Positions 1 through 62,051 of a DNA stretch of 64,000 bases are shown here, piece by piece. The notes below the pieces were generated by a model. It saw nothing but the letters and a program-made list of their open reading frames with translations. It had not been told where the DNA came from and did no database searches. A program made the translations under genes and the position numbers. Positions within the stretch are counted from its first letter, which is position 1, and every line of letters starts with the position of its first letter. Origin of the DNA: Bacteroidota bacterium. GTDB lineage: Bacteria; Bacteroidota; Bacteroidia; UKL13-3. The DNA lies in NCBI GenBank assembly GCA_947457395.1, contig CANGVA010000003.1:78825-142824 (forward strand). Reading direction: 5' to 3'.

Positions 1-192
1 GTTATTCAATCACTGAAGAACCCTATTATCTCTGTTATTTTAATGGACTGTTCAGGTAAAACTATTCTGCAATTAAATGATATTGGTAATGAAGGGGAAT
101 TAGATATCAGCGAGGTTGCTGATGGTATGTATTTACTAAAAGTAAGTACTGCCCAAACCAATGAAATAAAGAAAATTTTGATAAAGCATTAA
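1..192 (+). CDS. 3' end of a T9SS-secreted protein (type-A Por C-terminal sorting domain); 5' part lies outside the window
   Basis: Frame 1 translates to ...DISEVADGMYLLKVSTAQTNEIKKILIKH*, the typical Por_Secre_tail ending (G.Y.LKV... K-rich terminus); stop TAA at 190-192. Confidence 0.6.
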   Translation, partial: VIQSLKNPIISVILMDCSGKTILQLNDIGNEGELDISEVADGMYLLKVSTAQTNEIKKILIKH

Positions 193-200
193 GCCGGCCT

Positions 201-3200
201 ATGAAACAACTCTTCCTCTACTCACTTCTATTTACAGTTTCCGCTAACCTTGCACTTGCTCAGAATATATTTTCAGGAGAGCCGGTGCAGGTTACCGGCA
301 CTATGAATAGTTTTACCACAGCAGCTGCAGCCAATTCTACCTACCGAAGGATTACTACCACAACAGGAAATCCTACGGATGGAAGAGGTCAATGGGTTAA
401 AACCTATAACGCACAGCCAACAGGTGGAGATGTAACCAATACAAATATGCCCGGTGGCTCGGGTGGTGGCTTTTTATTTATTTCAGGACCTCCATCCAAC
501 AGGTTTCAAAATAAATGGGTTTTCTCAGGAGTTGGTCAGGCCAAATTAGATACGATCAATTCAATCTCAGCCTATAATTTTGGTCAGGATATGGGTTTGA
601 ATATGGCCACTCCGGGTAGATACACTTTTGTGTTTAATGATTGTGGTTATACAGCAACCAATGCCTTTTTTTATGTGGGTTACACACAAAATCAGCCGGT
701 GCAACTAAGCGGAGCAGGCATGCAGTTGCTGCAGAATGGCAGTGTTCAGGTACAAATATCAACTTCATCAACACCTTCCGCAACGGAAAGGGTATTTATC
801 AGGTATACACTCAATAACAATTTTGGTACCTCTTCGGGTAGTAGTATTATTCAGTGTTCTTCTATAAACAGTCCTAAAGATACGCTTTGGCAGGCAAATA
901 TTCCTGCGGCTTCTGCAGGAAGTAGCGTAAGCTATTATTTTTTCACATCAACGCTTTCGGCAGCGCAACTAAACGCTCTTAATGAAACGGGTAAGTCTTT
1001 ATGTGCAATTAGCGTTGCAGATAATAACGGATCAAATTTTCAGTATAGTTTTGTTCCAAAATATAATGTGGTATTTAGGATAAATATGGCTGCATTTGCA
1101 TGCACGCCATTCGATTCTATAACCTTAACAGGTAATCAGCAGGCATTAGGAAACTGGATTACATCAAGAAGATTAAAGCCTGTCGGTTCTATATTCTCAG
1201 ATACACTTTTGCTTGATTCAGGTAATTTGTTGGAGTATAAATTCAGATACCACCGCAATGGCCTAGCAAACTGGGAGGGAACATTTTCTACTACTAGTGG
1301 CAACAGAGAGTTAAGAGTTTCAAGAGATACTATATTACCTGCTTTTTGCTTCGGTCAGCAGCAGGCCTGCCCCGCTTTCATTCCTCCCTCACAGATTACC
1401 TTTAGGGTAGATTTAAGCAGAGGTTCACCGGATGTGCAGGGAAGAATATTTGTGATGGGTAATTTTACCCAACAGCCATGGCAACAAGGAGCATTGCGGT
1501 TATTCCCTGTTGCAGGTAAACCCGGACAATACGAAAGAACGATAACTACGTGCAGAGATACGTTATTGTATAAGTTTATAAATGGAGATAGTAGTGTTAT
1601 TGCCAACGCTGAAAGTTTTCCTTCACCATCCCAGCGCACCTGCGTTGTGCCTGCATCAGGAGGAGGGTTTAATAGAAGATTTATTAGGAATGATAGTTTG
1701 CCTGCTGTTTTGGACTTCATGTTTGATAGTTGTATGGCGGCACCTGTTTTACCGAAACTTAAGATTGTATTTGAAGTGAACCTAGAAAAGCAGAAGTGTG
1801 CATTACCTGACTCTGTATGTTTGGTGGGTAACAGTGTTTTTTTGGGTGGTTGGGGAAGTGGCAGAAAAATGACCAGAATACCAGGAACCAATCGCTATAT
1901 AGATTCTTTGCAAATAGATTCAGGACTAGTTTTGCAATATAAATTCAGAGCCCATCGCAATGGGCAAAGTATCTGGGAGGCTGATTTTATGACTCCGAGT
2001 AAAAATAGAGAGCTGCTGGTTAACGGTAACCTAAAAGCAGGTCCTTTCTGTTTTGGAGAAACAGCCAATTGTCCTTCAGGAAATCCTCCGTCTGCAGTAA
2101 AATTCAGAGTTGACTTATCGGATATAATTCCGGATGCTCAGTCAAGGGTATTTGTTATGGGTAATTTCACACAGCCCCAATGGCAGGGCGGTGCACTAAG
2201 GATGCAAGTGGTTTCCGGAAGGCCTGGCTTTTTTGAGCTTACCACACAGGTTTGTGTTGATACTATTTTTTATAAATTCATCAATGGCGATAGTTCAATT
2301 GTAGCAAATGCTGAATCATATCCTGATCCTAATCAGAGAGGATGTTTGATAAGTAATGGACTTGGAGGATTTAACAGAATGCTTGTGAGAAATTCGACAA
2401 ACCTAACGGAAGTAGAATATTTATTTAATAAATGCAGTAAAAAAGAAGAGGCTCAAATCAGTAATCCCGTTCCCACTATAGTTTGTGGTAATGGTATTGT
2501 TACGGTGCAATATAGTTTACGTTTTGCGCAATACACAGATACGATATTCACCATAGAAATCTCAGATACATCAGGAAGCTTTACTCAACCTGTAAATGCC
2601 GGAACAGTTAAGTTGTTTAATCAAACCGGTCAAACCAATCTTGCCATTCCGGCCCCTGCTTTCTCAGGAAAATACTGGATTAGACTTGTTTCTCCTGCAA
2701 GAAGTATTATCAGTTCTGCAATGGAAATCACTAGAAGGTCATCTGTATCAGTTGGCACAATAAGTGGGGCATCTTTTGTAAGAAAGAATGCAATTCACCC
2801 GTATCAAACAACTTTACCTCAAGGCTCAACAGCTATTTGGGAAGTTACCGGAGGTTTAATTCAAACTGGCGGAGGAACGGATAAGATTACCGTACAGTGG
2901 ATGAATGATGGATTACACAGCATCAAGGTAAAAGCCAATGATACCTGTAGTAATCAAACGCAGCTAACTGTTTCAGTTTGTCAGCCGGTAGGTGCAGACA
3001 GTATTATAGGACCAAGACAAGTTAAGCCTGCAGATACGGTTACTTATGAGGCCGCCAATAAATCATTTAGTGTTTACTTATGGCAGATAAGCAGTAATGG
3101 TAAATTAATCAGCGGTGCAGGAACCCCGCAAGTAAAAGTTATCTGGCAAAACGGCACATCCGGTAATGTCAGTGTTTATCCTCCTGAACCGTGTGTTGAT

Positions 3201-3479
3201 ACCTTAAGCATAGCCGTTAATATTGGATCAACCGGAGTGCAACAAGTGCAAAATCATGCAGTATCAATTTACCCAAATCCTTTTACTGATAAAATTTATT
3301 TCAGCGGATTAACCAACCAAACAAATGTCACCATTAAAGGCATAACAGGTGTAATTCATCAAGTGGTATATCATCAGGAGAAAGGCTTCATTGAAACGCA
3401 CATGCTGCCTGCAGGTGTTTATTTTTTAAACATCAGCACTGAATCTGGTTTGCAAATATTTAAATTGATAAAACTTTAA
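201..3479 (+). CDS. Large secreted multi-domain T9SS cargo protein with a conserved N-terminal domain of unknown function, tandem CBM20-like (starch-binding-like) repeats, a PKD/Ig-like region and a C-terminal T9SS sorting domain
   Basis: ATG start followed by signal peptide (MKQLFLYSLLFTVSANLALAQ). Repeated ...LGNW...EYKFR.HRNG..W motifs resemble CBM20/CBM25 starch-binding modules. C-terminus SIYPNPFTDKIYFSGL...GVYFLNI...LIKL = Por_Secre_tail. Confidence 0.7.
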   Translation: MKQLFLYSLLFTVSANLALAQNIFSGEPVQVTGTMNSFTTAAAANSTYRRITTTTGNPTDGRGQWVKTYNAQPTGGDVTNTNMPGGSGGGFLFISGPPSNRFQNKWVFSGVGQAKLDTINSISAYNFGQDMGLNMATPGRYTFVFNDCGYTATNAFFYVGYTQNQPVQLSGAGMQLLQNGSVQVQISTSSTPSATERVFIRYTLNNNFGTSSGSSIIQCSSINSPKDTLWQANIPAASAGSSVSYYFFTSTLSAAQLNALNETGKSLCAISVADNNGSNFQYSFVPKYNVVFRINMAAFACTPFDSITLTGNQQALGNWITSRRLKPVGSIFSDTLLLDSGNLLEYKFRYHRNGLANWEGTFSTTSGNRELRVSRDTILPAFCFGQQQACPAFIPPSQITFRVDLSRGSPDVQGRIFVMGNFTQQPWQQGALRLFPVAGKPGQYERTITTCRDTLLYKFINGDSSVIANAESFPSPSQRTCVVPASGGGFNRRFIRNDSLPAVLDFMFDSCMAAPVLPKLKIVFEVNLEKQKCALPDSVCLVGNSVFLGGWGSGRKMTRIPGTNRYIDSLQIDSGLVLQYKFRAHRNGQSIWEADFMTPSKNRELLVNGNLKAGPFCFGETANCPSGNPPSAVKFRVDLSDIIPDAQSRVFVMGNFTQPQWQGGALRMQVVSGRPGFFELTTQVCVDTIFYKFINGDSSIVANAESYPDPNQRGCLISNGLGGFNRMLVRNSTNLTEVEYLFNKCSKKEEAQISNPVPTIVCGNGIVTVQYSLRFAQYTDTIFTIEISDTSGSFTQPVNAGTVKLFNQTGQTNLAIPAPAFSGKYWIRLVSPARSIISSAMEITRRSSVSVGTISGASFVRKNAIHPYQTTLPQGSTAIWEVTGGLIQTGGGTDKITVQWMNDGLHSIKVKANDTCSNQTQLTVSVCQPVGADSIIGPRQVKPADTVTYEAANKSFSVYLWQISSNGKLISGAGTPQVKVIWQNGTSGNVSVYPPEPCVDTLSIAVNIGSTGVQQVQNHAVSIYPNPFTDKIYFSGLTNQTNVTIKGITGVIHQVVYHQEKGFIETHMLPAGVYFLNISTESGLQIFKLIKL
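1060..2436 (+). repeat. Internal tandem duplication inside CDS 201..3479: two ~680-nt units (1060-1745 and 1765-2436), each encoding two CBM-like modules
   Basis: Protein segments YNVVFRINM...YKFRYHRNGLANWEGTFSTTSGNRELRV...FRVDLSRGSPDVQGRIFVMGNF...YKFINGDSSVIANAESFP and KIVFEVNLEK...YKFRAHRNGQSIWEADFMTPSKNRELLV...FRVDLSDIIPDAQSRVFVMGNF...YKFINGDSSIVANAESYP align at roughly 55-60% identity by eye. Confidence 0.7.
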
Positions 3480-3490
3480 AAAATGAACCT

Positions 3491-5602
3491 ATGAAATTAA
3501 AATTACTTCTATCAAAGGTTAATTGTTTAACCTTGTTGCTTCTATTTGTATTTTGCTCCTTGCATCTTCATGCACAAAATATCTTTTCAGGAGAACCTGT
3601 TCAGGTAACCGGCAGTATGAGTAGCTACGGTACATCAGCAGCAGCCAATGCTACCTACAGAAGAATAACTACTACTATTGGCAATCCAACGGATGGCAGA
3701 GGGCAGTGGGTTAAAACTTACAATGCCCAAGTAACGGGTGGTGATGTAACAAATGCCAATATGCCGGGAGGAGGCAGTGCAGGTTTTCTTTTTATATCCG
3801 GTCCTGCTGCAAATCGTTTTCAGAATAAGTGGGTATTCAGTAACATTGCTCAGGCCCGCAAAGACTCCGTCAATATTGCTGATGCTTATAACACAGGTCA
3901 GGATATGGGATTAAATATGAGCACAGCTGGCAGGTATACATTTGTATTTAATGATTGTGGATATACCAGTGTTAATGCTAGATATTATGTTGGCTATACT
4001 TTGAATATTCCCGTGATACCAACAAACGTCTCGCAAAGCATACAAGCTAATAATAGTGTACTTGTAAATATTACTACTTCTGCTGCGCCATCTCCGGGTG
4101 AACGTGTATTTGTTAGATTTACTAGTGCTGCAACTTTTGCATCTACTAGCACCACTAACATTGTAGAGGCAATATCAACCAATGCACCAGCTAATACAAC
4201 CTGGCAGGCAACTATTCCTTCGCAGGCTCCAGGTACCTCAATCAGGTATTATGCGTTTACTTCTACGTTACCTCTTTCCCGTTTAAATCAGCTAACTGAA
4301 TTAGACAGAACATTGTGTTGCCTACAGGTAAATGATAATGGTGGAAATAATTATATTGTTGCTTTTGCACCTAAATTCAATGTTACATTCTCGGTTGACG
4401 TTACGAACAGTAATTGTTCAGGCATAGATTCCGTTACGATTACCGGTTCTGTTGCCGCTATGTCAATTTGGGGCAACGGACACAGACTTAATAGGGTAGG
4501 AACAACAAATGTTTATAACAGGACATTGCAACTTGATTCAGGAGTTGCGGTTGAGTATAAGTTTCGTTTTCACAGGAATGGTGCTACTAATTGGGAAGGC
4601 ACCTTTTCAACACCTTCAGGAAACAGAGAATTGGTTCCAATCAAAGATAGTACGCTTAGCACACCTTGCTTTGGTACTACATCTGCATGTGTAGCAATTC
4701 CTCCTCCATCTAATATAACATTTGCAGTTAATTTAACCGGACAGTCACCAGATCCGCTTGGTAGAATTTATGTAATTGGTAATTTTGGAACAGCCACCTG
4801 GATAAGTGGTGCTATACGTATGACTCCTATTGCAGGTTTGCCAAATCACTTTCAGGCTGTAGTGAACAATGTTTGTCCTGCTTCGTTTGAGTATAAATTT
4901 GTTAATGGAGACAGTTCGGTAATTGGTAACCAAGAAAGCTTCCCAAATCCTGCACAACGCGCATGTGTTATAAGCAATGGCTTTGGCGGATTTAATCGCG
5001 TTTATACTAGGGTTAATGCCAATCCGGTGCTGTTAGGGTTTGTATTTAATGCATGTAATACAGCACTTCCTGTTCAGTTTATAAGTATATCGGCCATTCG
5101 CAAAGGGGCAGGTGCAATAATTAATTGGACAACTGCATCCGAAACCAATAATAGGGGTTTCTTTATTCAAAGGTCAATTAACGGTGTTGATTTCGAAGAT
5201 ATGGGATTTGTTGAAGGTTCCGGTGAAAGTAAGACTCAAAGAAACTACTCGTTCCATGATAAGGATGCCAATCAAATTAGTTATTACAGAATTAAGCAGG
5301 TAGATTTTAATGAAACCTACGCTTATTCAAAGATTGTAACATTAGAAGCGCTCACTTCGGATTTAAATTTGGGTGTATACCCAATTCCTTTTAAGGACAA
5401 TGTGAAAATTCACTTCAATGAGGAGATTGATGGTAATATTTCATGGAGTCTATATAATACCAGTGGCATGCTGCTGCAAGAAGGTGAGCATGCTAAAACA
5501 AATTCATTTGAGTTGAGCGGCCTGGCTAACTATCAGGCGGGCGTCTACTATTTGAAAGTAATGTGTAACAAGGTTACTAAAACAGTTAAGTTAATTAAAT
5601 AA
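3491..5602 (+). CDS. Paralog of the preceding gene: secreted T9SS cargo protein with the same N-terminal domain, one copy of the double CBM-like unit, and a Por C-terminal sorting domain
   Basis: Signal peptide. N-terminal ~300 aa nearly collinear with ORF 201..3479 (QNIFSGEPVQVTG.M.S....AAAN.TYRRITTT.GNPTDGRGQWVKTYNAQ...). C-terminus LNLGVYPIPFKDNVKIHF...GVYYLKV...KLIK. Confidence 0.7.
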   Translation: MKLKLLLSKVNCLTLLLLFVFCSLHLHAQNIFSGEPVQVTGSMSSYGTSAAANATYRRITTTIGNPTDGRGQWVKTYNAQVTGGDVTNANMPGGGSAGFLFISGPAANRFQNKWVFSNIAQARKDSVNIADAYNTGQDMGLNMSTAGRYTFVFNDCGYTSVNARYYVGYTLNIPVIPTNVSQSIQANNSVLVNITTSAAPSPGERVFVRFTSAATFASTSTTNIVEAISTNAPANTTWQATIPSQAPGTSIRYYAFTSTLPLSRLNQLTELDRTLCCLQVNDNGGNNYIVAFAPKFNVTFSVDVTNSNCSGIDSVTITGSVAAMSIWGNGHRLNRVGTTNVYNRTLQLDSGVAVEYKFRFHRNGATNWEGTFSTPSGNRELVPIKDSTLSTPCFGTTSACVAIPPPSNITFAVNLTGQSPDPLGRIYVIGNFGTATWISGAIRMTPIAGLPNHFQAVVNNVCPASFEYKFVNGDSSVIGNQESFPNPAQRACVISNGFGGFNRVYTRVNANPVLLGFVFNACNTALPVQFISISAIRKGAGAIINWTTASETNNRGFFIQRSINGVDFEDMGFVEGSGESKTQRNYSFHDKDANQISYYRIKQVDFNETYAYSKIVTLEALTSDLNLGVYPIPFKDNVKIHFNEEIDGNISWSLYNTSGMLLQEGEHAKTNSFELSGLANYQAGVYYLKVMCNKVTKTVKLIK

Positions 5603-5755: not shown

Positions 5756-6841
5756 TTAAAACTTGTATACAAAATCAAGATAAGGAAGCGTTACATTTCT
5801 GGTATCAGGATCAGGTGCAATATTAACTACTGCAAAATCAATGCTGATTGCATTACTTGGCATAAAGCGTAAGCCAAGTGATAAAGCAGTTGAGTAAAAA
5901 TTCTTCTTTTCGTATACAGATTCCATCCATTCACTCCCGGTTCCGCTGGCTCGCAGCACTTGTCTATTATAACCTGCTCTTGGAATCATCCAGTTTTCTG
6001 TAACCAAAGAAATTTTCTTTGATATCCTTGTCATGCCATTTATGGTAGCTATGGGTCCTGGTGTAGCACTGTATTTATTATCAAAGCTGGCAAAGCCATA
6101 ACCTGCGCCAAGGGTAATATTGTGCTCGGTAGAACCATAGGTAGCGAGGCCATAGGCAACCCCTGCGCTTAGTCCCATTTCACTAAGAAAGGATTGGGTA
6201 AATAATATACCTGCACCGGTATAAAAACGTTCGGTTAGTTTAAATGATACTTTCGGAGTGATATAAAACAGAAAAGGTATTACAACACCTCCTCCAACAG
6301 TGAGGTTATTGGTTATCCCCACGTTGACCGAGTTGCCTATGATATAGGCATTTTGAAAATAGCCTTCTTTCTTTTTTAACGGAATAGCACTGGGTGCAAA
6401 AAAGTAGCGGGTAGCATTGGGATTGGCAAACCAAATACTACCTTTTCTGCTTGCAAATAAAGAGTAAGATGTAATTTTACTTATCATATTTACCGGGAAG
6501 GAGATGATGCCAGCAGAGCCTGTTTTAAGAAATACAACGCCACCGTTTAAACCAATCATTTCCCCTATATAGGTTTTCCCATTGGCAGCCTCAATCACTA
6601 TTTTGTCTTCGAGTTTATTAATATCTATTTCTTTAACTTCTTTCACAGCAATGGCAACCCTGCCTAAATTAAAATCATAAATAGCAACAGAGTCTGATTG
6701 TTGGTAATCAAGCAAACCATAAATTGTAGAGCCATCATTGAGTAATAAGGTGACTACAGATAAACCTATACTATCCGCTGATTGTCCCTTTGTAGCTAAG
6801 TTAGATATAGTTAGAAAAAATAAAGTAATTATCAGGCGCAT
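5756..6841 (-). CDS. Hypothetical secreted protein (N-terminal signal peptide; Gly/Ala-rich, possibly beta-rich)
   Basis: ATG start; MRLIITLFFLTISNLATKGQ signal peptide. No motif recognised. Confidence 0.5.
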   Translation of the reverse strand: MRLIITLFFLTISNLATKGQSADSIGLSVVTLLLNDGSTIYGLLDYQQSDSVAIYDFNLGRVAIAVKEVKEIDINKLEDKIVIEAANGKTYIGEMIGLNGGVVFLKTGSAGIISFPVNMISKITSYSLFASRKGSIWFANPNATRYFFAPSAIPLKKKEGYFQNAYIIGNSVNVGITNNLTVGGGVVIPFLFYITPKVSFKLTERFYTGAGILFTQSFLSEMGLSAGVAYGLATYGSTEHNITLGAGYGFASFDNKYSATPGPIATINGMTRISKKISLVTENWMIPRAGYNRQVLRASGTGSEWMESVYEKKNFYSTALSLGLRFMPSNAISIDFAVVNIAPDPDTRNVTLPYLDFVYKF

Positions 6842-33338: not shown

Positions 33339-35783
33339 TTAGCTCTTTTGTTCGGTTTTTCTTCTCCTGAAAAAGGTAAATCCACCCGCAACTACAATCC
33401 CACCATATAAAATAATGGAAGCAAACATTGAAACACGTTCACCCGTTTCTACAACCTCAGGCTCAAACACAAATTCAATGCGATGTTTACCTGCAGGCAC
33501 TTTCATGCCGCGTAATACATAGTTACAGCGAAGATGTTCTGCTGCATTGCCATCAATTGAGGCCTTCCATCCTTTATCGTAGTAGATTTCAGAAAATACT
33601 GCCAGGTTATCCGAACTGCTGTTCGATTCATAAACCAGTTTGTTGGGCGCATAACTTAGCAGTTTAATAGATGATGTAGAATCTGCCGTTGGATTGAATC
33701 CTTTAAGCATTTCAGCAAAACGTTTATCAACCAATGCAGTAGTTTTTGTATTGATTGTTTTAAGTGAGTCTATTTCTGCATCCGCATTATCAACCATCAT
33801 CAGGTTGCTAATAAACCACGCGTTGCCATTTGCTTCCGGATTGGCTTGAGCAAACAAATTATTGGCACTATCACCTACTATAAAGTATTTAACATTGAGC
33901 ATATTAAAAGCCTGCATATTCCCGCGTGATAAGTGAAACTCTATTAATTCCTGATATCTCCGCATTTTAGCGCCATGATATCCGCCAATGGATTTATGCC
34001 AATAGGAGGTGAGGGCATCCTGATCCAGGCGTTGCGTAGTATTGTATACACGGTAATGAATATCTTTATCCTGCAAAATCATTTCATCGGCTTGTGATTT
34101 TGGAAAGGAAGCTTCCAGATTTTTCTTCTTGGTTTCAAAATCTGAATCGTTTAGGTAACGTTTGTCAACGCCCCACAAGTCAATAACAATAAGACCTAAC
34201 AAAACACCCACAAATAATTGCTGCTTCACTTTTCCGTTCAGATAAAACCATATAAGGGTGAATGCAGCACCTATAAACAGTAATGACCTAAGTGCATCCG
34301 CTTTTAGTAAGGCTTCACGGTCCTTAACGATCGATTCTCTAAGCCATTCAGGCAGGCGGTCGTCAACCGGTGAAATGAAGTTAAGAAAAAGATCAGGCAT
34401 AAATGAAAAAACTGCGCATAGCCCCCCAACAATATAAAAGCTGTACAGTAAGGGTTTTTTCAAATCGGCCGGCTTTATTTTTCCTGAAAGCAAATCGCGC
34501 AAGGCAAGCAGGGCAAGCAGCGGAAATGTTGTTTGGGTAATGCACAGAATAAAAGTTACCGAGCGGAATTTGTTATACAAAGGAAAGTTATAGAAGAACA
34601 AATCCGTTAGTGTCATAAAATTTTTGCCCATGGAAAGCATGATGGCCAATACAGAAATGGCCAGTATCCACCATTTTTCAGGCCCTTTGATAACAAATAA
34701 GCCTAGCACAAACAGAAAACAAATGATGGCGCCATAGTATATGGGGCCGGCTGTAAATGGCTGGTCACCCCAGTAAACAGGCATACCCTGAATGATTTGC
34801 TTTGCATTAGGAACCCCGTTTTGCTTTAAGATTTTATAGGTTTCGGATGAGGTGCTGAGTTCTGCCGAACTGGAGCCGCCATAAAAATTAGGGATGAGCA
34901 GGGTAAATGGTTCTGCAACACCATTGCTCCATTGCAGGGCATAATCTTTATCCAATCCGGAGGAGGCAATAGCGGCATTACCTTCGCCTGTAGCCGTTTT
35001 GGTAAGTTCTGATTTGCCACGTATACTATACTTGCCATATTCTTCTGTTGGTAGCAGATTGTTGGCGCCTGTTGCCACACCAACGGCTGCGGCAACAGCC
35101 AGAAATACACCGCAAATAAGTAAGTGTGCGATCTTTTTGTCTTTGGCTGCAATCACAATCTCGGCTATCATCCACACGCCAATCAGAATCATTAGGTAAT
35201 AGGTTATTTGCAAGTGGCCTGCAGCCAGCTGTAGCGATAAAGCAATACCTGTGAGCAAGGCCCCGATAAGCCTGTTTTTGCGTAAAGTATAGTTGATACC
35301 TGCAAGCACCAGAGGCATAAAGGCAATGGCATTGCCTTTGCCTACGTGCCCTGCATCTATATTGATGAGGTTAAAAGAGGAAAACATAAATGCCAGACTT
35401 CCTGCAATGGCCAGCCAGGGCGAGACCTCGAAGGTTAGCAATAAGATATAAAAGCAAATAAACAACAGAAACATCGTGTCTACCGGGTTAGGTAAAACCC
35501 GGCTAATAAAATCACTTACCGTTGATGTGAAGTTGTTTTTATAAGATGGCCCGATGAGATAGGTGGGCATGCCGCTAAACACAGAATTGGTCCAAAAAGT
35601 GCGCTCTCCGCTTGCCTTTTGATATTGTGCAATTTCATTGTAGGTAGCTTGCCATTGCTGCACGTCATGTTGTTTTAGTGCTTTCCCTGAAAGTAACGGA
35701 TTAAAATAAATGATAATGGCAGTAAGGGCAATGATAATGGCAGCCAGATGAGGAAACCATTTTTTCTGCAAAAGTGAATTCAT
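33339..35783 (-). CDS. YfhO-family membrane protein (GT-C fold; polyprenyl-phosphate-sugar-dependent periplasmic glycosyltransferase family)
   Basis: N-terminus MNSLLQKKWFPHLAAIIIALTAIIIYFNPLLSGKALKQHDVQQWQATYNEIAQYQKASGERTFWTNSVFSGMPTYLIG matches the conserved start of Bacteroidota YfhO-family proteins (...QHDI.Q..G...EI..YR..TGEE.LW.NSMFGGMP.YL) as I recall them. ~800 aa, multi-TM N-terminal half with a large C-terminal soluble domain. Confidence 0.7.
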   Translation of the reverse strand: MNSLLQKKWFPHLAAIIIALTAIIIYFNPLLSGKALKQHDVQQWQATYNEIAQYQKASGERTFWTNSVFSGMPTYLIGPSYKNNFTSTVSDFISRVLPNPVDTMFLLFICFYILLLTFEVSPWLAIAGSLAFMFSSFNLINIDAGHVGKGNAIAFMPLVLAGINYTLRKNRLIGALLTGIALSLQLAAGHLQITYYLMILIGVWMIAEIVIAAKDKKIAHLLICGVFLAVAAAVGVATGANNLLPTEEYGKYSIRGKSELTKTATGEGNAAIASSGLDKDYALQWSNGVAEPFTLLIPNFYGGSSSAELSTSSETYKILKQNGVPNAKQIIQGMPVYWGDQPFTAGPIYYGAIICFLFVLGLFVIKGPEKWWILAISVLAIMLSMGKNFMTLTDLFFYNFPLYNKFRSVTFILCITQTTFPLLALLALRDLLSGKIKPADLKKPLLYSFYIVGGLCAVFSFMPDLFLNFISPVDDRLPEWLRESIVKDREALLKADALRSLLFIGAAFTLIWFYLNGKVKQQLFVGVLLGLIVIDLWGVDKRYLNDSDFETKKKNLEASFPKSQADEMILQDKDIHYRVYNTTQRLDQDALTSYWHKSIGGYHGAKMRRYQELIEFHLSRGNMQAFNMLNVKYFIVGDSANNLFAQANPEANGNAWFISNLMMVDNADAEIDSLKTINTKTTALVDKRFAEMLKGFNPTADSTSSIKLLSYAPNKLVYESNSSSDNLAVFSEIYYDKGWKASIDGNAAEHLRCNYVLRGMKVPAGKHRIEFVFEPEVVETGERVSMFASIILYGGIVVAGGFTFFRRRKTEQKS

Positions 35784-47633: not shown

Positions 47634-49064
47634 GTGAGCAATTCAATTAAAGTAGCAGTTATTGGTGCCGGTCCTGCCGGTATCACAGCTGCATATCAAT
47701 TAAGCAAAGAAATATCATCGGTTGATATATATGAGGCCAGCTCGTCTGTTGGGGGCCTTGCCAAGTCGGTTGAGCTATGGGGGCAAACTGTTGATATTGG
47801 TCCGCACCGTTTTTTTAGTAGCGATACAAGAGTAAACTCTTTATGGCTAGAGGTTGTAAAAGAAGACTATGCTATGGTAAACCGCCTTACGCGTATCCTC
47901 TATAAAAACAATTTATATTTCTATCCAATTAAAGCACTTGACGCGCTTAGTAAACTGGGCCTATTTGAAGCAGCACGCTGTATGCTTAGTTTTGGTCTGG
48001 AAAGAATATTGCCAACCAAGGATAAGAGTACGTTTGAAGGATGGGTGCGCAGCCGCTTTGGGAAAAGGCTCTATGAAATATTTTTTAAAACCTACAGCGA
48101 AAAACTTTGGGGTATTCCCTGCAATGAACTGGATGCTGATTTTGCAGCACAACGCATTAAAAAACTCTCCTTGTGGGAGGCGGTAAAAGCGGCACTGTTT
48201 GGTGATAAAGATAAAAAGCACAAAACGCTGGTGGATGAATTTGCTTACCCATTGCAGGGAACAGGTATGGTTTATAATCGGATGGAGCAGCTGATTAAAG
48301 AAAAAGGTGGCAAAGTATTTTTAAAAACACCTGTAAAGCGTGTGATTGTTGAAGGTGGCATGGCCAAGGGGCTTGAACTGGAAAACGGTGAGATAAAATA
48401 TTACGACCATATTATTTCTTCCATGCCACTTACGCTGCTGGTAAGTCGCATTGATGAAGCACCCCAGCAAATAAAAAGTCTGAATGCACAACTGCGTTTC
48501 AGAAATACCATTATTGTTTTTGTTGAGGTAGATGCAACCAATTTGTTTGAAGACAATTGGCTGTATGTGCATTCAACAGATTTACGCACCGGGCGTATTA
48601 CCAATTTCAGAAACTGGGTACCTCAATTATATAAGGATAAAAAAACCAGCATACTTGCTTTGGAATACTGGTGCTATGACGAAGATGATTTCTGGAAATG
48701 GACAGATGAACAGTTGAACAATTTAGGTATGGAGGAAATACGTAAAACCGGATTAATTGGCGAGGCAAATATTTTACATGCACATACGTATCGCATACCA
48801 CGTTGTTATCCTGTATACTCAAAAGGGTACAAAGAAATTCTGAGCCCTGTTGAGCAATACCTAAGCAGCATTCAGCATCTACATGTAATTGGCCGATATG
48901 GTGCGTTTAAGTATAACAACCAGGATCACTCCATTTTAATGGGTATGCTGGCAGCTGAAAATATTTTAAAGCATACCAAGCACAATCTTTGGGAAATAAA
49001 TACTGATTACGAAAGTTATCAGGAAAGTTCAGTTATTACTAAAACCGGGCTGGTAAAAAAATGA
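47634..49064 (+). CDS. FAD-dependent oxidoreductase of the UDP-galactopyranose-mutase (Glf)-like / amine-oxidase-like family
   Basis: N-terminal KVAVIGAGPAGITAAYQL...IYEASSSVGG (FAD Rossmann). FGKRLYEIFFKTYSEKLWGIPCNELDADFAAQRIKK parallels the E. coli/Klebsiella Glf segment [33 protein letters not shown], recalled from memory. C-terminal GRYGAFKYNNQDHSILMG. GTG start at 47634 (no upstream in-frame ATG). ~100 aa longer than bacterial Glf. Confidence 0.6.
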   Translation: MSNSIKVAVIGAGPAGITAAYQLSKEISSVDIYEASSSVGGLAKSVELWGQTVDIGPHRFFSSDTRVNSLWLEVVKEDYAMVNRLTRILYKNNLYFYPIKALDALSKLGLFEAARCMLSFGLERILPTKDKSTFEGWVRSRFGKRLYEIFFKTYSEKLWGIPCNELDADFAAQRIKKLSLWEAVKAALFGDKDKKHKTLVDEFAYPLQGTGMVYNRMEQLIKEKGGKVFLKTPVKRVIVEGGMAKGLELENGEIKYYDHIISSMPLTLLVSRIDEAPQQIKSLNAQLRFRNTIIVFVEVDATNLFEDNWLYVHSTDLRTGRITNFRNWVPQLYKDKKTSILALEYWCYDEDDFWKWTDEQLNNLGMEEIRKTGLIGEANILHAHTYRIPRCYPVYSKGYKEILSPVEQYLSSIQHLHVIGRYGAFKYNNQDHSILMGMLAAENILKHTKHNLWEINTDYESYQESSVITKTGLVKK

Positions 49065-52003
49065 GTAAGAAAAACACAAGTAAACCGGCCGCTGAGCCGG
49101 TAAAAACAGTAAGTGATCAGGAGCTTACTTTTTTGTTTGTTTCAAAAGGTACTGCTTCAGATGCCAACCTGATTGCTCAGGCTATATTAAAGGTGCGAAC
49201 CGAAGCCTCATTGGTAGTAATGGATTGGAGTTGTGATGCAGAAACCCAACAGGCTATTGCTGCACTCAGAGAGAAAGGACGCTGTCATGTAATAAAAAAT
49301 ATGGATGAGTGGCAGCAACACGCGGGGCAAGTAGTTTATGTGGTAGATGATGCTGCTTCATTTAATCCGCAAGCAGTAGTAACCTGTTTTGCTGCACAAA
49401 AAAAATCGTTCACACATACAGATGCAGTTTATGCAGGTGAGTTTAACAAACAGTCGGGTAAGTTACCGCTTTCTGTTTTTCAAAAAGCAGGTATTGGTTT
49501 ATACAATTTACTGGCTTCAATGCTGCTGCCTGCAGGCATCAAAGATTTTACACATCCATTTATATTTTTTGGCAAGGATGCAGCATTAAAAGGTATTACA
49601 TCCGGTCATACCAAAAGTATCTCCGTTTGCAGCAGGCTGGCTTATTTGCAAACACCTTTCATATCATTAAACCTTACAGGCAAAGAACATCCTTATCGAA
49701 AAGTTCGTTTTAATGTAATTAGCAGCAATATACTGGCCCCGCGCATTAGCTGGTTTATTAAAGATCCGTTGGTGCGTTACGGTGTAGAAGATGCCGCAGG
49801 TTATCAGCCATTATACCGTTTGCTTTTTGTGGCCTTTTTTCTGTTTGCATTTATTGCCATGCCATACTTGAGTCAGGATTTTGGTATTACATGGGATGCA
49901 AAGCGCCACAATCAATATGGCTATCAGATGCTCAATTATTTTACCTCATTTGGCAGTGATTCTACCGCATTATCTGCTACATCACCCATTCAGGAGTTTA
50001 GATACTACGGTGAGCATTTCAATGTAATCAGTGCATTTTTTAATACTTATTTTGGTGTGCTGGGTGAGTTTGAAATGCGCCATTTGCTTAATGCTTTGTA
50101 TGGATTGCTGGCCATGTTATTTGCAGCATTGGCTGCCAAAGAAATCACCTCCTGGCGTGGAGGCTTTTTTGCTTTTGTATTGATTTTTTGTAGTCCCGTA
50201 TTTTTCGGACACAGCATGAATAACCCAACGGATATTCCTTTTGCAGCGGGTTCTGCTATGGCACTTTATTATTTATTAAAGGTGCTTAAAAATTTACCTG
50301 CACCAACATTATCGCATCTGGTATGGTGTGCAGCAGGTATAGGCATGGCCATCGGATCTCGTGTGGGTGGCATCATCTGGTATGCCTACACCGGTTTGTT
50401 TCTTGGCTTGGCATGGTTGTTTATTGCAAAGAAAGATGGCATGGGTAAAGCCATTAAAATGATTTGGCCTTATGCACGTATCTTATTGCTTATCGTGATT
50501 ATTGGTCACTTGGTTGGTATTTCCTTATGGCCGTTTGCCCAGCAAAAACCATTTACCAACTGGTATGAGGCACTTAAAAAATCAACTGAGGGTGCTTACT
50601 TTACCTATAACCATGAATTATTTGAAGGTGTTCGGATGTACATGGCCAACGTGCCCTGGTATTATTTGCCTAAGTTTATTTTTATTAATACACCGGAAGT
50701 GGTTTGGGCCGGTTTGCTTTTACTCGTGCCGCTTATCTGGGTTTTAAAGAAAACGTATACCCGCTGGTACCTCATTGGTGTGGTATTATTTGTTGCAATA
50801 TTTCCTATAGCTTATGCTGAGGTTCAGAGCATGTATTATTATAATGGCTGGAGGCATTATCTGTTTGTATATCCGCCAATTGTGGTGTTGGCTGCTTGTG
50901 GCTGGGATGCCTTGGGCGCTGTTATCAGAAATAAAATGGCATCACATCTTGCATTGGCAGGCGTGCTGGTTTTAAGTATGCTTCCGGTTTCGTGGATGAT
51001 TGCCAATCATCCCAACCAATGTGTGTATTTTAATACCCTTAGTGGCGGAACCCGGGCAGCTTATGGTAAATACGAAATGGATTATTACTCTAACTCATGC
51101 CGTGCCGCAGCAGAATGGCTTTCCAAGCAAGAGCCCAATAAAAAATTACTGGTAGGCATCAATAATGAACCACTTACTGCATCCTACTATGCCAATAAGT
51201 TTAATCCCAATATGGAGTTCAGGTGGATGCGAGAGTATGAGGAACAAAAAATCCCTTGGGACTATGCTATCCTAACCTCACGCACATATTCTTCAAAAGA
51301 GTTGGCTAATGGAGCATTCCCTCCTAAAGGAACTGTTTATACAGTTGAAGCAGATGGCATGCCGCTGGCGGCTGTTGTTAAAAGGGAAAATGACTGGATG
51401 CCCAAGGGGTATCAGGCATTTGAAGCCAGAAATTATGATACCGCACTTATCTGTTTTAGGAATGCCGAAGCCTACAACCCAAAAGATGAAGAGGTTTTTC
51501 GCATGCTGGGTTTAACTTTCATGGCGATGCGTAATGCAACAGAAGCCACCAGAAGTTTAAATAAAGCCATTGATATATATCCTGAAAATTACATGGCATG
51601 GTCGGCTCTGGGCTTGGTAGAAATTAACCTAAATAAAAATCCGGATAAAGCTATTGAATATTTTAGAAAAGCCAATGAGTATAAGTTTAATTATACCGAT
51701 GCATACTATTACACAGCCATGGCATACTATCAGAAAAAAGATTTTTCTGAAGGAATAAAATATCTGGAGATGGCAGTAAAACGTGGCGGTGGTAGTGTGG
51801 CTGATGTTTATTATAATCTTGGACTCGGCTATTTTAATACAGGCAGTTATAAAAAAGCGGAAGACAACATGATACTAGCACTTACGCTGGAGCCTAACAA
51901 TGCTATGTCATACCGCTTACTTGCAGAAGTGTTTAGCAAACAAGGTAAAAATGCCGAAGCTGAGGAGTGTATGAGAAGATATGCAGCACTGGGTGGAAAA
52001 TAA
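49061..52003 (+). CDS. Large membrane glycosyltransferase-like protein: N-terminal cytoplasmic GT-A-like domain, GT-C-like multi-TM core (ArnT/PMT-type topology) and C-terminal TPR repeats
   Basis: aa ~1-240 soluble (VVYVVDDAASF resembles a DxD region). aa ~250-650 has >=10 TM helices, with Asp-containing first loop YLSQDFGITWDAKRHNQYGY. aa ~770-980 has tandem TPR-like repeats (AEAYNPKDEEVFRMLGLTF..., AIDIYPENYMAWSALG..., YYNLGLGYFNTGSYKKAEDN...). Start overlaps the upstream stop (ATGA at 49061-49064). Confidence 0.6.
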   Translation: MSKKNTSKPAAEPVKTVSDQELTFLFVSKGTASDANLIAQAILKVRTEASLVVMDWSCDAETQQAIAALREKGRCHVIKNMDEWQQHAGQVVYVVDDAASFNPQAVVTCFAAQKKSFTHTDAVYAGEFNKQSGKLPLSVFQKAGIGLYNLLASMLLPAGIKDFTHPFIFFGKDAALKGITSGHTKSISVCSRLAYLQTPFISLNLTGKEHPYRKVRFNVISSNILAPRISWFIKDPLVRYGVEDAAGYQPLYRLLFVAFFLFAFIAMPYLSQDFGITWDAKRHNQYGYQMLNYFTSFGSDSTALSATSPIQEFRYYGEHFNVISAFFNTYFGVLGEFEMRHLLNALYGLLAMLFAALAAKEITSWRGGFFAFVLIFCSPVFFGHSMNNPTDIPFAAGSAMALYYLLKVLKNLPAPTLSHLVWCAAGIGMAIGSRVGGIIWYAYTGLFLGLAWLFIAKKDGMGKAIKMIWPYARILLLIVIIGHLVGISLWPFAQQKPFTNWYEALKKSTEGAYFTYNHELFEGVRMYMANVPWYYLPKFIFINTPEVVWAGLLLLVPLIWVLKKTYTRWYLIGVVLFVAIFPIAYAEVQSMYYYNGWRHYLFVYPPIVVLAACGWDALGAVIRNKMASHLALAGVLVLSMLPVSWMIANHPNQCVYFNTLSGGTRAAYGKYEMDYYSNSCRAAAEWLSKQEPNKKLLVGINNEPLTASYYANKFNPNMEFRWMREYEEQKIPWDYAILTSRTYSSKELANGAFPPKGTVYTVEADGMPLAAVVKRENDWMPKGYQAFEARNYDTALICFRNAEAYNPKDEEVFRMLGLTFMAMRNATEATRSLNKAIDIYPENYMAWSALGLVEINLNKNPDKAIEYFRKANEYKFNYTDAYYYTAMAYYQKKDFSEGIKYLEMAVKRGGGSVADVYYNLGLGYFNTGSYKKAEDNMILALTLEPNNAMSYRLLAEVFSKQGKNAEAEECMRRYAALGGK

Positions 52004-57175: not shown

Positions 57176-58852
57176 TTAAAAATTTGTTGTCAAAGTAATT
57201 CGGCCCCCGCTAAAAGCAGGCTCTATGCGGCAAACACCACCGGTGCAATTAACACCCTGGGGCTGCTTTAAAAATGCCACGGTTAAGCGTGATGTTTTAT
57301 AAGTGTAGGCAGCAAAAAAGTTGTAGTAATGAATAAACTCAAACTTTTCGCCTGGTCCAGGTTTATTGATGGTGCCATGTTCGATATTTATCAAATCACC
57401 TGCTGCAAACGACCAATGAGGTGCAATATTATATTCAATCAATGCATTCACAAACTTGCCAAGATCCTGATTGGTATGCATATATTGCCACTCAAACCTT
57501 AAAGAGCGCGTAGAATTAAACTTATAGGTAAATTCACCAAACGGAGTAATGGCATTAACATAAGGTGCTTTCTCCTGTGGTTTGCCCTCAAACAGTACCT
57601 GATTATATCCGATAAATTGAATGCCTGCCATCATTTTAAATGCAGAGGTAAATTTATAAGTTGCGTCTATATAAAACTCGCTGAATAAGCGCGTTGTGCT
57701 ATCCCATTTAATTTCAGGTATGGCGTTTTTAAAATTAACTCCGCTAAGCATATTAACTGCAGATGTGTTTACATTCATGGCAAACTTTTTATTTGGCTTG
57801 AATGTAATTTCAAGTTGTGCGGCATTTTCACCAAGCTCCTGCACCACTGAGTTATAGCGAGCCAGTAATCTATACGTATTTTGGCGTGTTAGTGCAGGTA
57901 AATAGTTAATTACTGCACTATTAGGGAAAGGTTGTATTTCTAATGGATTAACACGTAACGGATACGTTTCAATTCTGCGTATTTGACCATTGATACCAAG
58001 ACCTTTTGTTGCATAAGAAAGACTCGCATAATAAACGTTGCCTCCTTTTTTAACTAATGTATTGCTGTAATCTAAAATTGCTTCGGGCGACTTATTGCAA
58101 TACTCCAGATAGAGTGTAAACTTTTTGTAGTTGAGTGTATTATAGATATTCCAAGAATACACATTATATGTAGGATTAAATCTTTTCTCAAGTGCATAGC
58201 CATTAATTGTATTAGCAATTTGGCTCATGGTGTTCTGGTCGAGTGTTCTATTTACCAAGGAAGCTCCCATATCCAAAATGGCATTTTCTGAAACAGGTAA
58301 ACGGTATTCTACATTGCCTCCTTTGATAACAGGCTCTCTGAAATCAAAGCGGAATTTTTGTCTGCCTGTAAATGCTTTAATGCGTAAGTTTTCATTCGGG
58401 GTATAAACAATGCGTGCCCCTTGAATTGCAAAATCTATACCTATGTTACGATCTTCGTATGCACGAAAGATGAGGCCAGTACCAAACTGATCGTAAAAGT
58501 AACCTCCTGTGATACTGAATTTATCTATCTCCTTTGTTATTTCCCAATAGCCCAGTCCCTGATTTGTATATGCCTGAAAAGGATTGAATAGCGGAGAATT
58601 ATTGAATAAATCATAACGAACAGTAAAGTTAAAGCCATGCAGTTTATAATTCATAAAGAGCCATGCTTCTGTAGATGACTTTTCTCTCAAATACTGTGTA
58701 GTGTTAGCTCCAATTCTATCATCACGCATATAGAATTGTGTATTCATCTGAAAATTGCCTGAAAATTGACCTTTGTCTGTTAACTCGCCTCCTTGCTGTG
58801 CTTTCAAGGTGAAAGAAGCAAGCATTAGCGCAACAACATAAATTTTTCTCAT
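57176..58852 (-). CDS. Hypothetical outer-membrane beta-barrel protein
   Basis: Signal peptide MRKIYVVALMLASFTLKAQQ (upstream ORF-track start is non-ATG). Alternating aromatic/hydrophilic strand pattern throughout; terminal Phe. Confidence 0.5.
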   Translation of the reverse strand: MRKIYVVALMLASFTLKAQQGGELTDKGQFSGNFQMNTQFYMRDDRIGANTTQYLREKSSTEAWLFMNYKLHGFNFTVRYDLFNNSPLFNPFQAYTNQGLGYWEITKEIDKFSITGGYFYDQFGTGLIFRAYEDRNIGIDFAIQGARIVYTPNENLRIKAFTGRQKFRFDFREPVIKGGNVEYRLPVSENAILDMGASLVNRTLDQNTMSQIANTINGYALEKRFNPTYNVYSWNIYNTLNYKKFTLYLEYCNKSPEAILDYSNTLVKKGGNVYYASLSYATKGLGINGQIRRIETYPLRVNPLEIQPFPNSAVINYLPALTRQNTYRLLARYNSVVQELGENAAQLEITFKPNKKFAMNVNTSAVNMLSGVNFKNAIPEIKWDSTTRLFSEFYIDATYKFTSAFKMMAGIQFIGYNQVLFEGKPQEKAPYVNAITPFGEFTYKFNSTRSLRFEWQYMHTNQDLGKFVNALIEYNIAPHWSFAAGDLINIEHGTINKPGPGEKFEFIHYYNFFAAYTYKTSRLTVAFLKQPQGVNCTGGVCRIEPAFSGGRITLTTNF

Positions 58853-58929
58853 AATTGGGTTAAATGGCCCGACAATTATATGCATATTAAACAATATTCT
58901 ACTGATTATCTTATCTGTTTTAAAGCTAC

Positions 58930-62037: not shown

Positions 62038-62051
62038 AGCTTTCAAATTAA

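Follow-up and report, generated by a model that had tools for sequence, protein, structure and literature searches.

Paired T9SS cargo genes with CBM20 modules and no recognisable catalytic domain behind two secreted amylase genes in a freshwater Bacteroidota bacterium

ORF1 and ORF2, adjacent genes in a freshwater member of the Bacteroidota, encode secreted proteins in which starch-binding-type modules follow a shared N-terminal domain (here, the head). The textbook example of the SusC/D paradigm, with its lipoprotein binders SusD, SusE and SusF beside a TonB-dependent transporter, is how Bacteroidota use starch. The layout described here differs from that paradigm: enzymes and non-catalytic binders are all type IX secretion system (T9SS) cargo, and no SusC/D genes lie nearby. 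The explanation that we favour, and consider probable, is that ORF1 and ORF2 are non-catalytic, T9SS-delivered binders of alpha-glucan (starch or glycogen) that serve the co-encoded amylases.

The amylase cluster and the modules of ORF1 and ORF2

ORF1 and ORF2 are the last members of a four-gene cluster on one strand, in the order GH13+CBM25/53 amylase, CBM48-GH13_47 amylase, ORF1, ORF2, and all four products are T9SS cargo. The third T9SS gene that the sequence-only reading had placed just upstream of the pair is indeed there: the gene ending at position 192 encodes the 931-aa CBM48-GH13_47 alpha-amylase (Pfam Alpha-amylase, CBM_48 and Por_Secre_tail), whose closest PDB match is 8xx9/8xxa (E 3.5e-174), an entry described as Rhodothermus marinus RmGH13_47A. 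The first gene of the cluster (amy1), 5' of this one, encodes a 900-aa protein with GH13, CBM25/53 and a C-terminal sorting domain (CTD). Gaps of 8 and 11 nt flank ORF1, a spacing that suggests co-transcription of the cluster genes. A scan for sigma-70 promoters and terminators returned no more sites than shuffled sequence did, with a consensus unsuited to Bacteroidota, and scanning the window (the whole 64,000-nt stretch analysed) for Rfam families and tRNAs gave no matches. Several further CTD-bearing genes are present, and beyond nt 12000 the 10 largest ORFs of the window include no T9SS machinery component.

The earlier reading had also proposed a check for a PUL upstream. No SusC or SusD genes were found within the flanks examined, up to 10 kb on each side of ORF2 (L001), and in L004, L006 and L008 unrelated genes (an Fe-S protein, a SprB-repeat protein), rather than SusC/D, lie directly 5' of the cluster. 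Within these flanks a canonical PUL is thus ruled out; the upstream neighbours are instead two T9SS-secreted GH13 amylases, which strengthen the link of ORF1 and ORF2 to starch.

Table 1. Features of the locus (positions in the window).
Feature	Residues	Position	Strand	Basis
Upstream alpha-amylase gene, 3' end (T9SS type A sorting domain)		1..192	+	Translation identical to tail of 931-aa protein in L001
ORF1: signal peptide, head, two (CBM20 + CBM20-like) units, unassigned segment, two PKD_6, T9SS CTD	1092 aa	201..3479	+	
ORF1 signal peptide, LALA before QNIF, mature N-terminus Gln	1-20	201..260	+	Sequence reading, putative cleavage site
ORF1 head, two beta-sandwich lobes, without Pfam model	21-287	261..1061	+	Profile A5, E 3.6e-121
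ORF1 CBM20 module 1	286-390	1056..1370	+	Pfam CBM_20 at 290-360; profile A3, E 1.9e-46
ORF1 diverged CBM20-like module 1	392-515	1374..1745	+	Profile A4
ORF1 CBM20 module 2	518-624	1752..2072	+	Pfam/profile match
ORF1 diverged CBM20-like module 2	628-750	2082..2450	+	Profile match
ORF1 segment	751-854	2451..2762	+	No Pfam match
ORF1 two PKD_6 domains	~855-930 and 932-1001	2763..3203	+	
ORF1 T9SS type A C-terminal sorting domain	1023-1092	3267..3476	+	Por_Secre_tail 35 bits; TIGR04183 40.7 bits
ORF2: signal peptide, head, CBM20, CBM20-like module, 'mid' domain, T9SS CTD	703 aa	3491..5602	+	
ORF2 head (lobe 1 ~29-173, lobe 2 ~174-295)	29-295	3575..4375	+	
ORF2 CBM20 module	294-400	4370..4690	+	
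ORF2 diverged CBM20-like module	402-528	4694..5074	+	Profile A4; alone, no PDB/Pfam sequence match
ORF2 'mid' domain	528-625	5072..5365	+	No Pfam model
ORF2 T9SS type A C-terminal sorting domain	629-703	5375..5599	+	Por_Secre_tail 36.7 bits; TIGR04183 43.7 bits

The two proteins are, as had been proposed, tandem paralogous T9SS cargo, with 55% identity across 512 aa. Both have hydrophobic leaders that, as read from the sequence, end in ALA (ORF1) or LHA (ORF2) before QN and have no lipobox Cys. Their type A CTDs exceed both thresholds applied (23 bits for TIGR04183, 27 bits for PF18962) and match at the extreme C-terminus, at residues 1023-1091 of 1092 in ORF1 and 629-703 of 703 in ORF2. No method used found a catalytic domain or a recognisable glycoside hydrolase family in either protein, in agreement with the earlier reading, and the domain searches found no cohesin/dockerin-like or other recognisable protein-protein modules. 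The 'mid' domain of ORF2 recurs in relatives of about 460 aa composed of head, mid and CTD (e.g. L033, L037, L040, L055 and L074).

Pfam CBM_20 (PF00686) matches both proteins above its gathering score of 23.3, with 38.4 bits in ORF1 and 27.6 bits in ORF2. The modules have the CBM20 beta-sandwich fold, and their profile (A3) matches solved CBM20s at E 1.8e-5 to 3e-3, among them those of Hypocrea jecorina glucoamylase (1.8e-5), Stbd1 (2e-5) and CGTases. Residues W34, K64, W75, E76, N85 and R86 are invariant among 21 CBM20 module sequences, in columns aligned with the canonical site (LGNW, YKF, WE, NR), and HMMER aligns the LGNW, YKF and TWES of the modules with the same motifs in the H. jecorina enzyme. 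We take binding site 1 to be the Trp...Lys...Trp-Glu...Asn set, after W543/K578/W590/N595 of Aspergillus niger glucoamylase. Two double-CBM units and a PKD-like region had been described in ORF1, and both are present. The assignment of the modules to CBM20/25 holds for CBM20 but not for CBM25: each unit is a canonical CBM20 followed by a diverged CBM20-like module, Cys-containing and invisible to Pfam, whose profile (A4) is homologous to that of the CBM20 module (hhalign probability 92%, E 6.7e-7).

The head domain and its family

The head of about 267 aa is 61% identical between ORF1 and ORF2 and matches no Pfam model and no known catalytic family, which agrees with its earlier description as a highly conserved N-terminal domain of unknown function. 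Its structure is predicted with confidence (pLDDT 91) as two beta-sandwich lobes. The best structural matches are starch binders (the X25 module of Ruminococcus bromii Sca5, SusF and CBM21), and Foldseek returned no match in the PDB at E < 1e-3. A profile search of the head sequence against the PDB, a Pfam search of the half-domains, and hhalign comparisons with the proteins' own CBM20 and CBM20-like modules and the amylase CBM25/53 likewise found no match. A sub-threshold CBM_56 match covers aa 178-247 of the ORF1 head.

No above-threshold CBM53/CBM25 match is found in the ORF1 and ORF2 heads, and close relatives reach E 0.0043 at best; in a remote branch of the family, 10 of 42 members have a lobe 2 that matches Pfam CBM53, the best at E 3.5e-9, and residues 190-222 of one member, P0158, score 28.0 bits against a cut-off of 27.6. 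The profile of that branch matches the ORF1 and ORF2 heads at E 1e-41 to 1e-44, and by these profile comparisons lobe 2 appears to be a remote relative of CBM53. Visual inspection suggests that lobe 2 has another residue in place of the Trp of the 'WDNN' motif of CBM25/53 (it reads DDN or NNN), and the canonical site may be lost. The domain's earlier description as novel is accurate in that neither Pfam nor the PDB holds a sequence match, but it needs qualification given the two-lobed beta-sandwich fold, the CBM53-like lobe and a large family that is mostly unconnected with starch.

At 50% identity, this family comprises at least 657 clusters. With few exceptions the head takes the N-terminal position in T9SS proteins, and its homologs all begin QN(I/V)(F/Y) right after a hydrophobic leader. 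Its fusion partners are mostly non-starch parts (SprB repeats, PKD, DUF2341, MopE motifs, long unannotated regions), and most members have no CBM20 and lie in housekeeping neighbourhoods devoid of carbohydrate-active genes; its occurrence is therefore not confined to starch systems, and its ligand may be a different one. CBM20-like modules directly follow the head in 14 of 143 family representatives, eight of them in the remote branch, and distant branches again combine it with CBM20, CBM48 or X25-like modules. Five neighbourhoods of remote proteins combining head and CBM were examined, four of them on contigs too short to inform; in one remote member, P0152, a GH13 cyclomaltodextrinase-like gene lies 79 nt downstream. 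Two candidate identities for the head were rejected: an AA13-like LPMO, because nearly all family members start, once mature, with Gln and the family has no invariant His, and a copper or Met-motif domain, suggested by invariant Met residues in close relatives, because these are not conserved in the remote branch.

Roles beside the amylases

Because all modules of ORF1 and ORF2 are of binding type, and because their genes lie directly behind two secreted amylase genes, the proteins most likely hold starch or glycogen for these enzymes. The explanation builds on what the analysis shows of the domain content, the lack of a catalytic domain, the T9SS signal, the conserved CBM20 site residues and the amylase neighbourhood. 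The earlier suggestion of secreted, non-enzymatic glycan-binding proteins is supported: a lack of any CBM, or a match of the head to a catalytic family, would have refuted it, but CBM20 matches above threshold and the head resembles no catalytic family in sequence. Sec would export each protein, with signal peptidase I leaving an N-terminal Gln; the type A CTD would then carry it through the T9SS across the outer membrane, to be attached to the cell surface by its C-terminus or released. We infer that the CBM20 modules, two in ORF1 and one in ORF2, bind alpha-1,4-glucan helices via the canonical Trp/Lys/Trp/Asn site, each with its diverged partner beside it; the distal two-lobed head would add reach and possibly more binding sites. 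The outcome would be multivalent attachment of the cell, or of an enzyme pool, to insoluble alpha-glucan, in freshwater presumably algal starch granules or cyanobacterial glycogen, which the co-encoded amylases could then degrade near the cell.

If the head recognised something other than alpha-glucan, such as a phytoplankton or detritus surface polymer or a partner protein of the cell, the proteins would act as bridging adhesins. They would then hold the bacterium on prey or particles and at the same time place the starch-binding modules, and would not be starch binders alone. The predominance of non-starch fusions and housekeeping contexts in the family is consistent with such a role, as is the position of the head at the extreme N-terminus, which would be the distal tip of a C-terminally anchored T9SS cargo and a typical adhesin layout; moreover, the identity of 45-58% that it keeps across loci titled Chitinophagaceae to Flavobacterium, Runella and Saprospiraceae points to a ligand that is shared and conserved. 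We nevertheless consider bridging unlikely, given the starch-binding character of the best structural matches, the CBM53-like second lobe, and the co-occurrence of the head with CBM20, CBM48 and X25-like modules in distant branches and with adjacent GH13 genes in two of these. The head could also be an unrecognised catalytic or granule-disrupting domain (a new enzyme acting on alpha-glucan, or a loosening factor of LPMO or expansin type) targeted by CBM20. A catalytic domain followed by CBM20 is common in enzymes that attack starch granules, as in AA13 LPMOs, and the head directly follows the signal peptide, is unusually conserved and keeps the acidic residues E7, D127 and E176 in both branches of its family; as it has no Pfam model, annotation alone cannot exclude a new activity. 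Such an activity appears highly improbable.

A further alternative shares the binding mechanism of the favoured explanation and differs from it only in localisation. With the CTD removed, the proteins would diffuse and coat granules, recruiting or retaining amylases or keeping the substrate from competitors, and would not tether the cell. Type A CTDs can lead to anchoring or release, and that of AmyB in Flavobacterium johnsoniae directs release (PMC12618676); both co-encoded amylases, further, have CBMs of their own. The lack of recognisable enzyme-recruiting modules argues against release, and the spacer-like PKD_6 and 'mid' domains before the CTD fit a cell-surface stalk; we regard release as unlikely.

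Non-catalytic starch binding as proposed here is a known strategy, and multi-X25 binders without catalytic function are established in SusE/F, Sas20 and Sca5 (PMC9112005). The role of ORF1 and ORF2 would be analogous to that of SusE and SusF of Bacteroides thetaiotaomicron (SusF, PDB 4FE9), but those are lipoproteins of a SusC/SusD locus, whereas the leaders of ORF1 and ORF2 are of the signal peptidase I kind and their CTDs are T9SS type A; Pfam finds no SusE (PF14292) or SusF_SusE match in them, and their binding modules are of CBM20 type. Sas20 and Sca5 of the R. bromii amylosome are likewise analogous in role but belong to a Gram-positive system assembled by dockerin-cohesin pairing and sortase; the X25-2 module of Sca5 (PDB 7RPY), which has a four-Trp clamshell site, is among the best structural matches of the head, at 15% identity and without sequence-level homology. 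Compared with the CBM20s of glucoamylase, CGTase, beta-amylase, Stbd1 and laforin, those of ORF1 and ORF2 are not enzyme-attached and are paired with a CBM20-like partner. The CBM53/CBM25 modules of starch synthase III and bacterial amylases are matched by lobe 2 of remote heads, one above the gathering score, but are undetectable in ORF1 and ORF2; the co-encoded amylase carries a true CBM25/53. A precedent for delivery is AmyB, a starch-active Bacteroidota T9SS cargo with a type A CTD whose secretion by this route is established in F. johnsoniae (PMC12618676), but AmyB is an enzyme. Literature searches for a described T9SS starch binder of the ORF1/ORF2 kind found nothing, and the combination of T9SS delivery with an uncharacterised head is what distinguishes the present case.

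A T9SS-only layout may be common among freshwater Bacteroidota feeding on phytoplankton storage glucans. It is possible, if doubtful, that the head is the founder of a new carbohydrate-binding family, with one X25-like and one degenerate CBM53-like lobe, that tips hundreds of T9SS proteins and, in this lineage, forms with CBM20 cassettes a SusC/D-independent 'surface amylosome' for algal starch granules. If the head does bind alpha-glucan, or a different glycan abundant in phytoplankton, a new CBM family would be defined, and with it a tip-adhesin architecture that is widespread. Since the family is large, has no Pfam model and sits at the tip of many T9SS proteins, identifying its ligand would give an annotation to hundreds of surface proteins now called 'hypothetical'.

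Recurrence of the genes and of the CBM20 cassette

In favour of the alpha-glucan explanation, five further genomes keep a GH13_47-type gene ahead of an ORF2-type gene. Four of them also have ORF1, which is absent from L006, the only one in which amy1 was detected upstream. Counting against it, five other loci with a head + double-CBM gene (L010-L014) have no GH13 detected in the flanks examined, up to 8 kb. Ongoing diversification had been suggested for the pair, and it is partly borne out by the number of repeat units, which ranges from 1 to 3 among orthologs; the split between ORF1 and ORF2 and the unit duplications are, however, older than the divergence of related genomes. Paralogs and repeat units are positionally orthologous across genomes, which rules out a recent tandem duplication. 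The CBM20/CBM20-like pair also occurs in proteins composed of a stand-alone cassette and a CTD; it behaves as a mobile cassette, provides a clean example of module shuffling, and could serve as a starch-targeting tag.

The amylase genes upstream and the four-gene layout

The exact ORF2 sequence was found on 17 public contigs; the longest among the contigs listed (L001, JGI metagenome 3300032294, 94 kb) also carries ORF1 and reaches upstream past the window. Two genes lie directly 5' of ORF1 on this contig (see table). The window's first 192 nt encode the last 63 residues of the 931-aa amylase, whose stop lies 8 nt before the ORF1 start; a third T9SS gene had been proposed just upstream, and the frame ending at nt 192 does have a CTD-like tail. 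The 931-aa enzyme matches PDB 8xx9/8xxa (E 3.5e-174), described in the entry as the Rhodothermus marinus alpha-amylase RmGH13_47A, represented by its CBM48-A-B-C domains and bound to a branched pentasaccharide. The nearest structures to the 900-aa enzyme are CGTase and alpha-amylase GH13.

The upstream neighbours were also checked for a PUL; two T9SS GH13 genes were found there instead, with no SusC/SusD within up to 10 kb on either side of ORF2 on L001, nor among the ORFs that precede the cluster directly in three related genomes. The four genes therefore form a compact T9SS cargo set, in which two alpha-glucan hydrolases are followed by two proteins without a catalytic domain. The next gene 3' of ORF2 is a convergent 361-aa ORF, kept beside the cluster on other ORF2-bearing contigs. 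It has a signal-peptide-like start and no Pfam match, and its last residue is aromatic (...FVYKF), as is typical for outer-membrane beta-barrels.

Coordinates and content of the features discussed (window positions unless a locus or residues are named)
Feature	Position	Strand	Size	Content
Amylase gene preceding the 931-aa gene	L001	same as ORF1	900 aa	GH13 catalytic domain, CBM25/CBM53, Big_5, T9SS CTD
Amylase gene adjoining ORF1	L001	same as ORF1	931 aa	CBM48, GH13 catalytic domain, T9SS CTD
N-terminal extra region of GH13_47 amylase	L001 3907-4600		~230 aa	sub-threshold DUF4961, 22.6 bits vs 27.1
ORF1	201-3479	+	1092 aa	
ORF1 head	residues 21-287	+		61% identical to ORF2 head
ORF2	3491-5602	+	703 aa	
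ORF2 head	residues 29-295	+		61% identical to ORF1 head
ORF2 mid domain	5072-5365 (aa 528-625)			
Convergent ORF	5756-6841	-	361 aa	
YfhO-like membrane protein	33339-35783	-		
PMT_2/TPR protein	49061-52003	+	980 aa	PMT_2 glycosyltransferase-like membrane domain, C-terminal TPR repeats
DUF6029 family protein	57176-58894	-		DUF6029, 410 bits
SusE-domain protein	58930-62046	-	1037 aa	SusE domain PF14292, residues 822-927, 36.6 bits; then T9SS type A CTD
T9SS protein of sister clade	L010 7693-10278; L011 10034-12619; L014 10038-12617	same as head gene	~860 aa	

Binding modules of ORF1 and ORF2

ORF1 and ORF2, separated by 11 nt, align over 512 aa at 55% identity (BLASTP); as proposed, they are tandem paralogs with a common N-terminal domain (heads 61% identical). 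Pfam places CBM_20 over its gathering score of 23.3 in both (38.4 bits in ORF1, 27.6 bits in ORF2), Por_Secre_tail at both C-terminal extremities, and two PKD_6 domains in ORF1; NCBIfam identifies TIGR04183, the T9SS type A sorting domain, in each. The expected CBM20-type modules and type A CTD are thus present, and no catalytic family was found in either protein at E <= 1 in Pfam or NCBIfam. The sequence-only reading is borne out in all particulars as an observation, and its interpretation of the pair as possible glycan-binding surface proteins that are not enzymes is essentially right. Non-catalytic starch-binding surface proteins were already known; what is new here is the combination of T9SS delivery with an unmodelled but widespread two-lobed head at the front.

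After the head comes a ~235-aa unit made up of a CBM20 module (residues 294-400 in ORF2) and a diverged CBM20-like module (402-528 in ORF2); residues 518-752 of ORF1 are a second copy, 42% identical to the ORF2 unit (second internal BLASTP match). A profile of the first module of each unit (A3; 21 sequences from the window and related genomes) matches the solved CBM20s of H. jecorina glucoamylase, Stbd1, maltotetraohydrolase and CGTases, and its LGNW, YKF and TWES motifs align with the equivalent motifs of the H. jecorina domain (HMMER). W34, K64, W75, E76, N85 and R86 (module numbering) are invariant in A3, and we take them to correspond to binding site 1 of CBM20. A profile of the second module (A4) has no sequence match in Pfam or PDB, yet it aligns with A3 at an hhalign probability of 92% (E 6.7e-7), which shows the two modules to be homologous; the first Trp, along with YKF, is retained.

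ORF1-type and ORF2-type genes fall into separate clades across five genomes, and the repeat units are positionally orthologous between genomes, so the duplications are older than these lineages. Unit number in ORF1 orthologs is 1, 2 or 3, and the L006 genome is without ORF1. The ORF2 architecture corresponds to a ~460-aa head-mid-CTD form, found at several related loci, with an inserted CBM cassette. The mid domain, which separates the binding modules from the CTD, has the pattern …NWTT..E.N…F.IQRS.NG.DF…YYRIKQVDFNE…YS.IV; it lacks a Pfam model and is found again in many T9SS proteins of the retrieved loci.

The head family and its relation to starch

Neither head has a Pfam match, even when its halves are searched separately, and a PDB search with the 42-sequence head profile returned nothing. 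The AlphaFold2 model built from the same 42-sequence alignment is all-beta and confident (pLDDT 90.9, pTM 0.90), with two sandwich lobes at roughly model residues 1-145 and 146-267; lower-ranked structural matches include the TVA I N-domain, GlgE and CBM56. Lobe 1 features kept in both head branches include the LFxSGP and NKW motifs, Y121, D127 and Y130, and W86, Y121 and Y130 (mature ORF2 numbering) are candidate platform residues. An LPMO-like role is rejected on account of the N-terminal Gln and the lack of a conserved His, and a Cu/Met site because the remote branch does not conserve the Met residues.

Searched against 1.84 billion representatives, the trimmed head profile (A5) recovers at least 657 clusters at E <= 1e-3, of which 420 reach E <= 1e-10. 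The proteins range from about 340 to 4460 aa, and the head almost always occupies residues ~20-300, straight after the leader. The heads of ORF1 and ORF2 are both picked up by the remote-branch profile (E 1e-41 to 1e-44), so the branches constitute one family. A T9SS CTD is present in 34 of 42 remote members scanned, and a Pfam CBM53 match in 10 (best E 3.5e-9); the match sits in lobe 2 in all five members localised, and in one of the remote members (P0158) spans residues 190-222 (28.0 bits vs a cut-off of 27.6). Given these matches within one family, lobe 2 thus appears to be a diverged CBM53/25-type module. DUF4961, the sub-threshold match in the GH13_47 amylase, strongly matches three of the 42 remote proteins (best E 3.7e-14).

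A link between the head and starch is favoured by the CBM20-like modules that directly follow it in 14 of 143 family representatives (eight of which belong to the remote branch), by CBM_20, CBM_48, AMPK1_CBM or X25-like Pfam domains in five or six of the 42 remote members, and by one remote protein (P0152) that joins a head to four CBM20-like modules and a CTD, with a GH13 cyclomaltodextrinase-like gene 79 nt downstream. However, the majority of family members instead carry SprB repeats, PKD, DUF2341, MopE motifs or unannotated regions; the short-form members examined (3/3) lie in housekeeping-gene surroundings; and no GH13 was detected within up to 8 kb of flank near the head and unit gene in the sister clade L010-L014. 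On this evidence we regard the head as an N-terminal module in general use among T9SS surface proteins, with a probably distal position; it appears to derive from folds of starch-binding type and to have entered alpha-glucan systems on more than one occasion. In the sister clade, the next same-strand gene overlaps or abuts the head and double-CBM gene and encodes a ~860-aa T9SS protein. The CTD is the sole Pfam match in the one scanned (L010), and this protein could be an unrecognised enzyme partner.

Proposed role and other genes in the window

ORF1 and ORF2 would be exported by Sec, transit the T9SS through their type A CTDs, and then be attached to the cell surface or released. Type A CTDs are compatible with either fate, and the amylase AmyB is secreted via such a CTD in F. 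johnsoniae (PMC12618676). Outside the cell, the CBM20 sites would allow multivalent alpha-glucan binding, with the head at the far end, and may thereby keep the cell, insoluble glucan and the two secreted amylases together; SusE/SusF and Sas20/Sca5 are functional analogues (PMC9112005). What the head family binds is the most valuable question raised by this locus.

The closest cluster relatives (L004-L014 and the CANH*/JBI* records) come from MAGs, several named as pond samples, which is consistent with storage glucans of phytoplankton being the natural substrate. The species names on some of these records are implausible (Vulcanococcus, Variovorax, Chitinophaga pinensis); mis-binned or mislabelled contigs probably account for this.

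Elsewhere in the window, the 1037-aa protein again has a Sus-type binding module on T9SS cargo rather than on a lipoprotein, the second such case in the genome; its first ~820 residues have no Pfam match. The DUF6029 gene lies directly downstream on the same strand, and its product may be a partner outer-membrane protein. The PMT_2/TPR and YfhO-like genes are of envelope glycosylation type, unconnected to ORF1 and ORF2.
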